64,000 bases of DNA from Escherichia phage BP9: the sequence record PP488543.1, one strand, 5' to 3'. Below, piece after piece: positions 22,815 to 26,735 of the stretch; positions within the stretch are counted from its first letter, which is position 1; every line of letters begins with the position of its first letter. The notes beneath the pieces were generated by a model. It was not told the DNA's origin. It did not search any database and saw only the letters and a program-made list of their open reading frames with translations. A program made the position numbers and the translations under genes.

Positions 22815-23083
22815 TACTCGGCCTCTTCCTTAAAAATTTTAAACATCTCTTCTTTACTCATTACCAACCAGTCTCCCATAAAGTCAACTAGCCAATCTCC
22901 CTGGTACAAGACAAGGTTACCAAACGGCTCTACAAGCTCACACATGCGACGAAGATCTCTGGTCCGAACAGGTGACGATGTAAACACACCTGTATCAATC
23001 CACCGTTGCAGATCAGATACTGATGAAGAGCTTCCGTCAAACTGGTGGGCTTCTACAGGTTTAGCAAGATTAAATAACGGCAT
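22814..23083 (-). CDS. hypothetical protein (89 aa)
   Basis: Track ORF. Confidence 0.45.
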   Translation of the reverse strand: MPLFNLAKPVEAHQFDGSSSSVSDLQRWIDTGVFTSSPVRTRDLRRMCELVEPFGNLVLYQGDWLVDFMGDWLVMSKEEMFKIFKEEAE

Positions 23084-23378
23084 TGCAGTCCTCCTTCTGT
23101 AGTAGGTCTTTTATAGGATAAACAAGTAAGTGTGGATCGGAATAACGTATAGTCCTATTCTGCCACACTATGAACTTTATTACAACCAAATTTACAATAT
23201 CTTTATCACCATGCAGCCCAACACACACATTTGTCCATATTTTGTGGTTGAAGATCTTGCTATCGATGTAGATTTTAGTGTCAAACTTATCTTCCATTCT
23301 ACCTATAAGTTTGATCAGCTCCTTCATCTGGTCGCCAAACACAGCATCTTTTTCAAGATCTCTGGAATGCTTGTACAT
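23070..23378 (-). CDS. hypothetical protein (102 aa)
   Basis: Track ORF. Confidence 0.45.
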   Translation of the reverse strand: MYKHSRDLEKDAVFGDQMKELIKLIGRMEDKFDTKIYIDSKIFNHKIWTNVCVGLHGDKDIVNLVVIKFIVWQNRTIRYSDPHLLVYPIKDLLQKEDCNAVI

Positions 23379-23440
23379 AACTAACTACCTCACTGCATAC
23401 TTTCCATAATAAGTAAAGCCGGGTAATCCCGGCTATGTTG

Positions 23441-24154
23441 TTAAATATACTCTGTTACATCCTTGAAGCTCGAAGGCTTCATGATCTTACCTTTGCTGTC
23501 AAGGAATATAATAACTTTATTGCCGTTGTAGAACTCCTCTTTAGCAACGAAACCTTCGTAGCGACCACCAAAACGACGCTCAAGATCTTTAATCTCCAAC
23601 TCGATGAGTTGTTCAGCAGGCATATCTGCACTGGCACCGTGTGAATACCGTAGATGGTTGATCCGTGCAAACTTACTGTCATTAGATTTGAGAACCTTCC
23701 GCATCATCCCACACACATCGCCGCGAAGCTGGAACAGCAAAGCTGTTGACAACTCCGCTAAGCGGTAAGCTGACGCTCTTTGCTTGGATGTGTTTTTCGC
23801 AGCGATCAGTGTATCATAGAACTCACCGATCTTGAACTTAAGACCTCGTGGATTATCAAACAGGTTTGACCACTTTTCGTGATTGTCATTAACAAGATAA
23901 GCTGCATAACTTGTGACAACGTGAAGATCGCAGGCCTCTTTTAGCAGGTGATCTCCACCATCACCTTTCTCCAGCTCTTCCAAAACCTCATTGAACTCTT
24001 CCTCAATGAAGCTAAGCTGTAATTCGAATGGTGTGTATGATTTTTTCACTTTAGCTGCCACACGGTTCCAGTTTTCCACCCAGTTGGCAGACCAAAGGTA
24101 GTTTTCAGGCTGGGACAGTTTTTCAAGGTTGTCGATTAATTTGGTGTTCAGCAT
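23441..24154 (-). CDS. hypothetical protein, weak MazG-like nucleotide pyrophosphohydrolase resemblance
   Basis: Glu-rich helix FIEEEFNEVLEELEKGD; resemblance is weak. Confidence 0.4.
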   Translation of the reverse strand: MLNTKLIDNLEKLSQPENYLWSANWVENWNRVAAKVKKSYTPFELQLSFIEEEFNEVLEELEKGDGGDHLLKEACDLHVVTSYAAYLVNDNHEKWSNLFDNPRGLKFKIGEFYDTLIAAKNTSKQRASAYRLAELSTALLFQLRGDVCGMMRKVLKSNDSKFARINHLRYSHGASADMPAEQLIELEIKDLERRFGGRYEGFVAKEEFYNGNKVIIFLDSKGKIMKPSSFKDVTEYI

Positions 24155-24167
24155 TAAAGGTCTCCTT

Positions 24168-24929
24168 TTAAAGTTCCATAAAGTTTTCTACAGTTTCAAT
24201 AAATGCTTTATCAGAGAAAGCGTCAACAGCACCGTTAAACCATACAGGGATCCCGCGATCCTCATATTGATAAAGGTCGCTACGTGAAATGCCACTTCCA
24301 TCTGCACTCTGCGAATCATACTTGTTTACAATCAGCAGCTTTGTGCCTTTACAAGTAGCAGGAAACAATTCCCAGTTAAAATTAATAACTGTGTTAGAAC
24401 AACCTACCAGGATCACCATATCATTGCTTGTGAGAGATGTCAACAGGTCATACATGTCTGTATACTTAGGAGCAACCTCACCGAAGAACACTACATTGGG
24501 CTTAACCCAGGTATACTTGCCTGTATCTACCTCCGTGTATCCGATATTTTTAATTACATCATTACCTTCATCATCTTCGTAGGTGATTTCAGGCAAATAC
24601 CCGTGGACATGTAAAATATCTTCATGTTTTACACCAGCACGCTCCAGCAAATCATCTACATTGGTGGTAAGGTTGATCACACGACCAGACCAGCGGGAAT
24701 ACCACTCAGCGATCCGAAGATGTGCAAGGTTAGGATCAACACTGCCCAGAGCTACACGACGTGCATTGTAAAAATCATGCACCTTATAGTAGTTCTTGGC
24801 AAAGGTGTGGATGTTGCACACCTCATCGATGCTGAAATTCTCCCACATTGCAGTGCTACCAGATCGGAAAGTGGGAATACCAGATTCAGCGCTCAAACCC
24901 GCACCGGATATAATAATCAGTCGTCGCAT
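24168..24929 (-). CDS. Sir2 (sirtuin)-family NAD-dependent enzyme
   Basis: Rossmann NAD motif ISGAGLSAESGIPTFRSG, TTNVDDLLERAG and catalytic HVHG; no Cys4 zinc module seen. Confidence 0.75.
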   Translation of the reverse strand: MRRLIIISGAGLSAESGIPTFRSGSTAMWENFSIDEVCNIHTFAKNYYKVHDFYNARRVALGSVDPNLAHLRIAEWYSRWSGRVINLTTNVDDLLERAGVKHEDILHVHGYLPEITYEDDEGNDVIKNIGYTEVDTGKYTWVKPNVVFFGEVAPKYTDMYDLLTSLTSNDMVILVGCSNTVINFNWELFPATCKGTKLLIVNKYDSQSADGSGISRSDLYQYEDRGIPVWFNGAVDAFSDKAFIETVENFMEL

Positions 24930-24937
24930 AAGTGCCC

Positions 24938-25288
24938 TCAGTAGATGTTTTGTTTAATCTCTATTCCAAACTTTTTAAACGAGTCAGCTGCAAGCATGAA
25001 TTTACGAGCCGCTGATGGATTAGAAGTATGCACGAAAATCTTCACGTTGTCAACTACAGGAGGCTTACCAAATACAAATTTTTCCTCCAACATAGATAGG
25101 CAATCGTACCCTTCGAATACCTCTCCAAGGTCGTTGTCCATATGCCACTCAGAAACGCGTCTGTAGAGCTTTTTATTATCGTTAATAAAATCCATAAACT
25201 CGGAGGAATTCTTTAGCCAAATAGCGTCTGGGAGCCCATAATTTGAAGGATCTCTCAGATCATCCAGCCACACAATCAACTTCTTCAT
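24938..25288 (-). CDS. hypothetical protein (116 aa) in RNA-repair cluster
   Basis: Track ORF; 4-nt overlap with RNA ligase gene implies co-translation. Confidence 0.5.
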   Translation of the reverse strand: MKKLIVWLDDLRDPSNYGLPDAIWLKNSSEFMDFINDNKKLYRRVSEWHMDNDLGEVFEGYDCLSMLEEKFVFGKPPVVDNVKIFVHTSNPSAARKFMLAADSFKKFGIEIKQNIY

Positions 25289-26220
25289 TGCATATAGTCC
25301 TCGTTGTGGAAATAGTGGTCAAGTATCTCACGGCGTTCCTGCTCCAGGAGGCAGTTCCACACATCTTCTGTGTAATTGCTACGAATGAAGTTTACCATGC
25401 CGTAAAACTCTTCATCAACACGTTTAAAGATATCATCATCCCAAATCTTCCAAGCTTTACCCCTCATTACGGCCTTCCGTGCCAGATAGTATGGAGACTT
25501 GATCTTCAGCTGCAGGTCGTAAGGGTAGTAAGGCTTACGGATCATATACCCTTCACCTCTTGTTTCTGCAGCTAATTCTTTTGCATAGCTGAACGGAATT
25601 TCACGCACAGTGTGAGGACGTTTTGCACCAAGGTATTTGGCAATCCCATCTAAAGCTGCTTCTGGTAGCATTATTCCAGAATCATTATATCTGCAACCTA
25701 TCAAATATGCGCCATGATCTTCTTGAACAATATGCGGATCTGAAGGGTGACAAATTTCAAACATGAATGTCATGTTTTCATTGCCCATAACCTTCTTGAT
25801 AAGATCTAAATTACCACATTGCTCCTGGATGGTTTCCTTTGCGAGGTTACAATATGGAGAATCAAGAGATCCGGTTGTTGAGAACAATAGTTCACCTTTA
25901 TGAGATGATACCACACCGAGGAATCCGTTCTTTTTCTCTACCGCAGTCACAAGTTTACTGTCCGGTAGGTTGGTGGAGTTTTCTCCCAAGTTAAACACTT
26001 TTGTGAAGGGCCATGCCACAACATTTCCTTCATTCCCGACAACAATGCCTCGGCACTCCAGTAAACGAGGGGACAAATGCCATAAATTGTTGTAAAATAC
26101 TTTTCTAGCATATTTATAGATCTTTAACCCGAGATCTGGGTAATATCTGCTGGTTACAAGACCTTTGTCAACTAGGTCGTCTGCATTAAAATACTTCATC
26201 ATACGTTCCTCATTTGTCAT
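25285..26220 (-). CDS. probable RNA ligase (nucleotidyltransferase superfamily, Rnl-like)
   Basis: Motif I EKKNG (KxNG), motif IV EGYMIR, motif V KIKSPYY; 311 aa; adjacent to kinase and phosphatase genes. Confidence 0.6.
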   Translation of the reverse strand: MTNEERMMKYFNADDLVDKGLVTSRYYPDLGLKIYKYARKVFYNNLWHLSPRLLECRGIVVGNEGNVVAWPFTKVFNLGENSTNLPDSKLVTAVEKKNGFLGVVSSHKGELLFSTTGSLDSPYCNLAKETIQEQCGNLDLIKKVMGNENMTFMFEICHPSDPHIVQEDHGAYLIGCRYNDSGIMLPEAALDGIAKYLGAKRPHTVREIPFSYAKELAAETRGEGYMIRKPYYPYDLQLKIKSPYYLARKAVMRGKAWKIWDDDIFKRVDEEFYGMVNFIRSNYTEDVWNCLLEQERREILDHYFHNEDYMQ

Positions 26221-26263
26221 TTTGTCAGTCTATCCTGCCACACAAATAACCTAGTGTCAACAC

Positions 26264-26292
26264 TTGAAATTAACAAAACAGTTAGGTATACT
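26264..26292 (+). promoter_or_regulatory. sigma70-like promoter for kinase/phosphoesterase operon
   Basis: TTGAAA (26264-26269) N17 TATACT (26287-26292), about 29 nt upstream of ATG 26321. Confidence 0.5.
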
Positions 26293-26320
26293 ATCGTTGA
26301 AATTAAAACGGAGGGTCACT

Positions 26321-26728
26321 ATGTCTAAAATGCTATATATCGTGCGTGGTCTACCAGGGTCTGGCAAATCAACACTGGCAAATGCGCTATCTTTAGAGGG
26401 TCTGTATCCACATTTTGAGAACGACATGTTCTGGTACGACGATGATGGAAATTACAACTGGGATGCAAGTAAAGTCACACTTGCAGCAAAATGGTGCAAA
26501 GATAACGTAGAAGATATGATGCGTATGGGATACGACCGTATCGTGGTAAGTAATACGTTTACAAAAGAAAAATATGTGCAAAAATATATTGACATGGCAA
26601 TCAGTTATGGGTATAGTTATACCGTAATCGTGGTTGAAAACCGCCACGGTAATAAAAGCATTCATGCTTCAGACGAGGTTGTGGATCGTATGGAACGCCA
26701 ACTTAAAAACTGCATTAAACTTAAATGA
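26321..26728 (+). CDS. polynucleotide kinase-like P-loop kinase
   Basis: P-loop GLPGSGKST right after start MSKMLYIV; GGAGGG SD 5 nt upstream; track ORF begins at TTG 26264 but ATG 26321 preferred. Confidence 0.65.
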   Translation: MSKMLYIVRGLPGSGKSTLANALSLEGLYPHFENDMFWYDDDGNYNWDASKVTLAAKWCKDNVEDMMRMGYDRIVVSNTFTKEKYVQKYIDMAISYGYSYTVIVVENRHGNKSIHASDEVVDRMERQLKNCIKLK

Positions 26729-26735
26729 GGAATGT

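Follow-up and report, generated by a model that had tools for sequence, protein, structure and literature searches.

The window analysed in this study, a stretch of 64,000 nucleotides from Escherichia phage BP9 (record PP488543.1), carries a gene for a protein of the Sir2 (sirtuin) family that has lost the cysteines of its structural zinc site and lies among genes of RNA repair (Table 1). The open reading frame (ORF) starts with ATG, directly preceded by a GAGGG ribosome-binding site. The 253-residue product matched the Pfam SIR2 profile (PF02146) at E=1.9e-27 (96.8 bits against a cutoff of 24, over 178 of the 180 profile positions), and the phrog_2162 'Sir2' profile matched residues 1-252 at E=1.6e-108. 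CobB, SIRT5 and Sir2Af1 led a sequence search of the PDB, in which E. coli CobB was matched at 3.7e-21, and they also led both fold searches. The AlphaFold (AF2) model, with a predicted local distance difference test score (pLDDT) of 90 and a predicted template modelling score (pTM) of 0.88, has the three-dimensional fold of a sirtuin. Its best Foldseek match was CobB (TM-score 0.75 query-normalised, 0.83-0.84 target-normalised), and the structures closest to it are those of CobB and SIRT5 with acyl peptides bound. These several independent measures make the Sir2 assignment secure. An earlier reading of the letters alone (the sequence-only reading) had placed a phage Sir2 protein at exactly this ORF and had called for its predicted structure to be compared with deacylases and with defence-type SIR2 proteins; Pfam, phrog_2162 and the fold bear out the former, and the comparison put CobB and Sir2Af1 on top.

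The ratio of nonsynonymous to synonymous substitution rates (dN/dS) of the gene was 0.03 and 0.10 against two relatives, which at the sequence level indicates strong purifying selection. The gene is real and conserved, and its predicted product is probably active.

Active-site residues and the degenerate zinc module

The phage sirtuin was aligned with E. coli CobB and 119 homologues at 49-94% identity. Residues of the NAD (nicotinamide adenine dinucleotide) site and the catalytic centre were invariant or nearly so and common to CobB: G9-A10-G11-x-S13, F21-R22, N90, D92, H109-G110, F149-G150-E151, G176-x-S178 and N202. Canonical NAD+ binding and the histidine for the second catalytic step are thereby secure as predictions, and the protein looks active. 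The motifs that the sequence-only reading had quoted are indeed present, at residues 9-24, 90-99 and 107-110. The near-universal sirtuin motif TQNID appears as TTNVD. In CobB and SIRT5, the YxxR motif binds the carboxylate of succinyl- and malonyl-lysine.

Table 1. The sirtuin gene, its motifs and its neighbours, in window coordinates
Feature	Coordinates	Strand	Remarks
Sir2-family (sirtuin) gene, zinc-less member of phrog_2162	24168..24929	-	253 aa, ORF call
GAGxS motif for NAD binding with the loop that binds the cofactor, residues 9-24 (F21-R22 among them)	24858..24905	-	Same in E. coli CobB; F21 and R22 invariant in 120 homologues
Y54-N-A-R57, class III YxxR motif	24759..24770	-	Y54, R57 and R58 invariant in 120 homologues, common to CobB (FYNARR)
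TTNVD, residues 88-92, nicotinamide/ribose pocket	24654..24668	-	T89, N90, V91 and D92 invariant in close family
HVHG with catalytic His109	24600..24611	-	H109 and G110 invariant, aligned with CobB catalytic His
Degenerate zinc-ribbon module, residues 111-142	24504..24599	-	First CxxC replaced by Y117...D120; second CPxCG deleted; [IV]-G130-Y131 kept
KPNVVFFGE, residues 143-151, substrate-binding loop and hydrophobic wall of acyl-lysine tunnel	24477..24503	-	K143, P144, F148, F149 and E151 invariant, V146 and G150 nearly so; common to CobB
cREC protein (cyclic-phosphate processing receiver domain), 116 aa	24938..25288	-	PF20274 1.7e-14; phrog_1479; directly upstream of sirtuin
Rnl1-type RNA ligase, 311 aa	25285..26220	-	Pfam RNA_lig_T4_1 (PF09511) 9.3e-15; phrog_562 3.9e-66
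MazG-like nucleotide pyrophosphohydrolase, 237 aa	23441..24154	-	phrog_671 5.8e-22; own AGGAG ribosome-binding site
Terminator-like hairpin closing the Rnl1-cREC-Sir2-MazG unit	23417..23434	-	7-bp stem with 6 GC pairs, then T-rich tail
P-loop (polynucleotide-kinase-like) kinase, divergent	26321..26728	+	Pfam AAA_33 3.5e-10; phrog_2071, phrog_505 'polynucleotide kinase'
Calcineurin-like metallophosphoesterase, divergent	26736..27290	+	Pfam Metallophos 2.5e-6; phrog_547 1.3e-51

Sirtuins carry a CxxC...CxxC module between the catalytic-His motif and the FGE motif. The phage sirtuin has three cysteines (38, 177 and 193), none of them between these two motifs; with no Cys at residues 111-146, the four-Cys structural zinc site is absent, as the sequence-only reading had noted. 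This site is typical of sirtuins but not catalytic (PMC8556138). An exhaustive search of 1.84 billion representative proteins returned 5,477 relatives at E up to 0.001. Among the best 150 of them, many have the [IV]-G-Y motif of the clade yet an intact CxxC...CxxC; the module of one such zinc-bearing relative, P0135, reads WCMDCKNIFEIGYSKYDLKKCEKCGSKWIKPYIVF. When zinc-bearing and zinc-less modules were aligned, the first knuckle was found to be substituted (Y117 and D120 here, variable elsewhere) and the second, CPxCG, to be deleted in the lineage of the phage sirtuin, while the flanks HxHG...[IV]GY...KPNVVFFGE are unaltered despite the loss. Strands 110-118, 124-128 and 142-146 are modelled in place of the ribbon at a pLDDT of about 95. 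Together with the zinc-bearing members of the clade, these features indicate that, as judged from the sequences, the zinc loss is a derived degeneration within a CobB-like clade and not the mark of another kind of SIR2 domain. The ribbon would have degenerated to a cysteine-free three-stranded sheet, a structural simplification that would leave the chemistry unchanged.

The presence of Thr89 was also compared with zinc loss among representatives at 50% identity. Thr without the zinc site was found in 26 and Gln with it in 43, the exceptions being 7 with Gln and no zinc site and 5 with Thr and zinc. Shared ancestry alone could explain this association.

The RNA-repair neighbourhood and the spread of the family

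The sirtuin gene lies in a tight unit of four genes, read in the order Rnl1, cREC, sirtuin and MazG, with a 4-nt overlap (ATGA), an 8-nt gap and a 13-nt gap at the successive junctions. Phage Murica has the same layout, a like annotation of the MazG-like gene and an annotated terminator at the matching place. The claim of the sequence-only reading that the gene stands next to RNA-repair genes is borne out by the Rnl1-type ligase, cREC, the kinase and the metallophosphoesterase. Iyer et al. (2022) described a phage sirtuin clade whose neighbourhood type 2, 'Escherichia phage V5', holds a T4-like RNA ligase, cREC, a nucleotide kinase, MazG and a calcineurin-like phosphoesterase (PMC9503650); all five of these partners (ligase, cREC, kinase, MazG and phosphoesterase) lie within 3 kb of the sirtuin gene in the window. 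A phmmer search of the PDB with the adjacent Rnl1-type ligase gave no significant match, whether to T4 Rnl1-like enzymes or to Trl1-like enzymes that require a 2'-phosphate. A promoter scan of the cluster gave matches at consensus level only, which were not used.

A phage tRNA array occupies positions 30207-31146, about 3 kb beyond the cluster. Within it, ARAGORN called a 99-nt tRNA-like gene (30803-30901, plus strand) with a four-base anticodon (atcc) and no amino acid assigned; its counterpart in Murica is annotated 'tRNA-OTHER, Asp|Gly'. This gene could be intron-bearing, or an unusual or defective tRNA. Murica also has a tRNA-Tyr annotated between tRNA-Arg and tRNA-Ser, and a homologous sequence lies at about 30413-30499 on the plus strand of the window, uncalled by ARAGORN. 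Its anticodon is GTA and its acceptor stem is intact, but there are several substitutions in the region of the D-arm. Just before it stands an insertion of 127 nt (30286-30412), absent from Murica.

The window phage is an rV5-like Escherichia myovirus (Vequintavirus) with 99% identity to vB_EcoM_YN3 over 4.5 kb. At least 80% of this 4.5-kb stretch (23000-27500) is covered by 117 records, nearly all at 90% identity or more. The search with this stretch also gave 18 'Campylobacter phage' records about 96.5% identical over the 4.5 kb, 16 of them with C. jejuni as host, those listed being unannotated MG0656xx records; this near-identity between phages of such distant hosts suggests mislabelled hosts or contaminating coliphages. 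Annotated Vequintavirus genes are 92-100% identical to the sirtuin of the window, and T5.102 of phage T5 ('putative Sir2-like protein') is 57% identical. Homologues were found in about 1,004 phage records, from T5, PVP-SE1-like, phAPEC8-like, and Klebsiella and Salmonella T5-like phages to large Vibrio and Erwinia phages. The family is very widespread: besides the model phage T5, it takes in many phages of E. coli, Salmonella and Klebsiella that are candidates for therapy.

Linkage was surveyed at 60 viral and 80 bacterial loci that hold relatives, using the neighbours of the window and of T5 as queries. The five-partner type 2 set was also found at loci L007, L028-30, L033, L036, L047 and L060. 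About 15 of the 60 viral loci had none of the RNA-repair neighbours searched for; among these, L038 and L049 had only domains of unknown function (DUFs) and an AAA_28 kinase, and L053 a weak Metallophos match. The kinase at L049 (8707-9246, AAA_28 at 3.4e-15) lies about 1 kb from the sirtuin gene. Ribosylnicotinamide kinases of the NadR type belong to the AAA_28 family, which would hint at a connection with NAD salvage at this locus. In T5, where about 110 kb of 121.7 kb were searched (all but the terminal repeat and 1.4 kb inside nrdA/hegH), no homologue of the window's Rnl1, cREC, kinase, metallophosphoesterase or MazG was detectable. Downstream of the T5 sirtuin, two tandem DUF7415 genes (T5.106 and T5.107, L001:6651-7478) follow a HAD_SAK_2 phosphatase. 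A DUF7415 homologue also stands beside the sirtuin in some phages without a detected HAD_SAK homologue (L034, L035 and L057), and DUF7415 may be an unrecognised sirtuin partner. On a 279-kb jumbo-phage contig, a nucleoside 2-deoxyribosyltransferase-like gene (PF15891, 1.2e-33) directly follows the sirtuin gene (L065:7001-11642), an arrangement absent from the three neighbourhood types of Iyer et al. (PMC9503650).

None of the 80 bacterial loci had RNA-repair neighbours of the kinds searched for. The nearest cellular relatives (41-48% identity, and 41-58% for the relatives in Marinobacterium and other bacteria as a whole) are spread across the genus Marinobacterium and a few other bacteria, where they lie among ordinary chromosomal genes; they likewise lack the zinc site and have the motifs TTNVD and FYNxRR. 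Gene order near the Marinobacterium copies was conserved only in part, and the genes there, of ordinary cellular kinds, gave no clue to function. Loci L067-L088 hold zinc-less TTNVD relatives from many Marinobacterium species, plus Haliea and a metagenome-assembled genome of Bacilli, and a zinc-bearing TQNID relative was met on a Paracoccus plasmid. These copies suggest transfer of the clade from phage to cell or from cell to phage. A Sir2-metallophosphoesterase pair shared by phages and bacteria was considered and rejected, as the phosphoesterase beside the bacterial relative P0126 shows no specific relationship to that of the phage (E=0.61) and this context is absent at the Marinobacterium loci. 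Zinc-bearing P0135 (51% identity) is encoded two genes downstream of a lipoate-protein ligase (LplA-B_cat; L003:2060-5427), on a contig with a Mycoplasma-type MpPF1 gene; the arrangement is reminiscent of the LplA2-SirTM operons and of CobB/SrtN with their lipoamidase activity. Domain fusions in longer relatives consisted of SIR2 only, plus one WG_beta_rep.

The acceptor of the phage sirtuin

The phage protein is probably competent in catalysis and belongs to a clade of sirtuins, CobB-related (class III-like), that has spread among large virulent phages of Gammaproteobacteria. It would follow the ordinary sirtuin mechanism, in which an oxygen of the substrate attacks C1' of the nicotinamide ribose of NAD+ and nicotinamide leaves, after which His109 would activate a ribose hydroxyl. 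The likeliest acceptor is a protein acyl-lysine, either acetyl-lysine or the negatively charged succinyl- or malonyl-lysine, and the products would be the deacylated lysine, nicotinamide and O-acyl-ADP-ribose. Canonical lysine deacylation is slightly favoured over removal of RNA 2'-phosphates as the activity of the phage sirtuin, with a probability of about 0.45. It is favoured because the VVFFGE tunnel and the YxxR pocket are invariant, because the nearest structures are acyl-peptide complexes, and because the protein is acidic like CobB. Its isoelectric point (pI) is 4.83 and its net charge -13, compared with a family median pI of 5.14 and with 5.42 and -11 for CobB; by this computation the basic character of an RNA-binding protein is absent. 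Deacylation is also the simplest activity common to the rV5-like operons, the ligase-less T5 and the Marinobacterium chromosomes. Since the sirtuin travels with RNA-end-healing genes in several phage lineages, its physiological targets would probably be phage or host proteins of translation or RNA repair and not the proteome at large. The suggestion of the sequence-only reading that host factors are modified survives in this form, and a deacylase view had been reached for the zinc-less Vibrio-phage homologue by Skliros et al. in 2016 (PMC5107563).

Several observations weigh against deacylation. The residues that support it discriminate poorly, because any NAD+-dependent transfer of ADP-ribose needs the same NAD site and would equally require them. 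Literature searches found no biochemical or genetic study of any clade member, and nothing beyond transcript profiling. The protein is, by its sequence, related to CobB but is not a CobB orthologue: it scores far below the NCBIfam cutoffs for the CobB equivalog and subfamily models, NF040867, NF001753 and others (best 121.9 bits against 243; 102.8 against 320 for NF040867). In all close family members Thr89 stands in place of the canonical Gln of TQNID, while N90 and D92 are retained. This replacement and the other traits that set the clade apart from CobB (the [IV]GY motif, the C-terminal extension and the lack of zinc) could mark a change of substrate. Finally, linkage to RNA-end processing recurs in at least 3-4 arrangements, which a generic deacylase does not predict. 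All five neighbours persist in PVP-SE1-like phages, inside a stretch of about 5 kb, at 25-63% identity and in altered gene order, and phAPEC8-like phages keep four of the five, cREC not being found there. At about 30 T5-like loci the sirtuin gene is instead followed at a short distance by a HAD_SAK_2 'Swiss Army Knife RNA repair' phosphatase gene (T5.105, 4e-20) and a pair of DUF7415 genes, and the jumbo-phage locus L065 has the RNA-repair enzymes Thg1 (6.5e-26) and RlaP (3.7e-69) within 3 kb of the sirtuin.

This recurrent linkage is the starting point of the strongest rival, in which the phage protein is a functional analogue of Tpt1/KptA, as predicted for exactly such a neighbourhood by Iyer, Burroughs, Anantharaman and Aravind in 2022 (PMC9503650). 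The 2',3'-cyclic phosphate left by host anticodon nucleases would be converted to a 2'-phosphate by a phosphoesterase, either cREC or the metallophosphoesterase. The sirtuin would move ADP-ribose from NAD+ onto this phosphate, and the 2''-OH activated by His109 would displace it as ADP-ribose 1''-2'' cyclic phosphate. The 2'-OH end or junction would be left for, or after, sealing by Rnl1, and the MazG-like enzyme would dispose of the ADP-ribose product. The phage sirtuin would then be the first with RNA as its physiological acceptor, an RNA 2'-phosphate or RNA-end ADP-ribosyl-transferase that replaces Tpt1/KptA in phage tRNA repair against host anticodon nucleases. This is a possible but doubtful reading, and so is its corollary that the YxxR pocket was re-used for phosphate and that the cleft was widened by trimming of the zinc ribbon. 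Tpt1/KptA acts by a two-step transfer of ADP-ribose from NAD+, and the two-step chemistries of sirtuins and Tpt1 are formally similar; Arg57, which is invariant, could serve to hold a phosphate. The close packing of the gene with those for Rnl1, cREC and MazG, opposite the kinase and the metallophosphoesterase, speaks for such a role, as do the tRNA array nearby, the persistence of the linkage in PVP-SE1- and phAPEC8-like phages through divergence and reordering, and the other RNA-repair partners met elsewhere (HAD_SAK_2 in T5, Thg1 and RlaP in L065). However, no RNA ligase of this type, cREC or kinase is detectable in T5, which nevertheless has the sirtuin, and the cellular relatives have no RNA-repair context; orthologues of 50-57% identity therefore work without such a ligase or without any RNA-repair context, and these cases temper the RNA-repair hypothesis. 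The protein is also strongly acidic, as CobB is, and an RNA backbone would be hard to thread through the narrow hydrophobic tunnel of the invariant VVFFGE motif. The two candidate phosphoesterases of the operon could clear the phosphate alone. RNA phosphates are not known to serve as acceptors for any canonical sirtuin. The idea that the protein acts on RNA ends, raised in the sequence-only reading as well, thus agrees with a published prediction (PMC9503650) and is a possibility that stands slightly behind deacylation.

Mono-ADP-ribosylation of a protein or a nucleic-acid end, as by SirTM or through the weak ADP-ribosyltransferase (ART) activity of SIRT4 and SIRT6, could divert translation or RNA metabolism in the host, or could label RNA ends, and is improbable. 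The NAD+ site is intact, the change to T89 at a ribose-contacting position could alter the fate of the intermediate, and zinc-bearing P0135 lies beside a lipoate-protein ligase, as SirTM does. However, ARTs of the SirTM type have Gln for the catalytic His and keep the zinc (PMC8120803), the opposite of the phage sirtuin, which is 14% identical to SirTM against 26-28% to CobB and Sir2Af1. Pfam and PHROG searches found no macrodomain or other ADP-ribose-removing partner among the proteins of the cluster. Identity as SirTM itself was rejected on the retained His109, the lack of zinc and the cluster without a macrodomain.

It is still less probable that the protein is an NAD+ glycohydrolase that depletes NAD+ like the SIR2 effectors of defence systems, or that it interferes with NAD-based host immunity. 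A defence-type SIR2 NADase was rejected on hidden Markov models, the fold ranking and the lack of partners. PADLOC gave a single chance-level match (E=0.012 over 34 residues), and Pfam SIR2_2 scored 13.5 bits, below its cutoff of 24.5. Fold and motifs are of the deacylase type, with no sensor domain. No fused or adjacent partner of the defence type (SLOG, HerA, Argonaute, STAND or a large C-terminal domain) was found with this single-domain protein of 253 residues, whose neighbours are RNA-repair enzymes. The sequence-only reading had framed the protein through the zinc-less SIR2 domains of defence, a framing that these results do not support. Its suggestion that the phage counters NAD-depleting immunity likewise finds no support, because a sirtuin consumes NAD+. 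Depletion of NAD+ would harm a virulent phage, and the known phage counter-measures rebuild NAD+ (PMC13464706); the NARP3 paper concerns host Sir2-HerA only, not a phage sirtuin. That the protein is a decaying or purely structural remnant, its activity destroyed by the zinc loss, is hardly credible in view of the dN/dS of 0.03-0.10, the catalytic residues invariant over about 1,000 phage records, the confident model of the zinc-free module and the transcription of a homologue in Vibrio phage infection (PMC5107563).

If the phage sirtuin is a deacylase, infecting phages would edit their own acyl-proteome or that of the host. Should it be an analogue of Tpt1, sirtuin chemistry would extend to nucleic acids and provide a new step in phage counter-defence against tRNA-cleaving immunity.

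Comparison with known systems

The sirtuin of the window is a member of the phrog_2162 family (T5.102 and the homologues of rV5, PVP-SE1 and phAPEC8) and has the same zinc-less module, with nothing substantial to set it apart. The neighbourhoods of this family vary by lineage, with Rnl1, cREC and the kinase in the window phage but HAD_SAK_2 and DUF7415 in T5. It is also homologous to Sir2/CobB of the Vibrio schizoT4-like phages phiSt2, phiGrn1 and KVP40, with 41-50% identity to Vibrio-phage records. Skliros et al. modelled these proteins and found the zinc ligand of the finger domain absent, the catalytic His and the acetyl-lysine tunnel conserved, and the genes transcribed in infection; they proposed salt bridges as stabilisers and activation of Acs as a role, and did not analyse an RNA-repair context (PMC5107563).

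The arrangement in the window is identical to neighbourhood type 2 of Iyer et al., here verified independently, for which they predicted that the sirtuin acts like KptA/Tpt1 in removing 2'-phosphates from RNA; the zinc loss, the cellular relatives and the missing ligase of T5 are unmentioned there (PMC9503650). In silico, both were thus already known: the zinc loss from 2016 (PMC5107563), and the neighbourhood, along with the idea of a role in RNA repair, from 2022 (PMC9503650). This study adds that the zinc loss is a derived substitution and deletion of knuckles within a clade that still has zinc-bearing members, that it travels with the Gln-to-Thr change in the NAD-ribose motif, and that there are zinc-less cellular relatives without an RNA-repair context and a T5 without a partner ligase of the Rnl1 type.

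Tpt1/KptA uses NAD+ in a two-step transfer of ADP-ribose. In phages it joins RNA ligases and end-healing enzymes (PMC9503650). Its fold, ART, is unrelated to the Rossmann fold of the phage protein, so that any likeness would be one of analogy only. The defence SIR2 NADases (ThsA, DSR1/2, SIR2-HerA, SIR2-APAZ and Avs5) belong to the same distant superfamily and also have no zinc ribbon. SirTM, which is zinc-bearing, has Gln for the catalytic His and is paired with a macrodomain (PMC8120803), is the reverse of the phage sirtuin. The closest likeness is to the class III sirtuins (CobB, SIRT5, Sir2Af1 and PfSir2A), with which the phage protein shares the invariant YxxR and among which both this motif and its nearest neighbours place it. 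It differs from them in its zinc-less module, TTNVD for TQNID, [IV]GY and a C-terminal extension, at 26-33% identity, and in being encoded by a phage inside an RNA-repair cluster.

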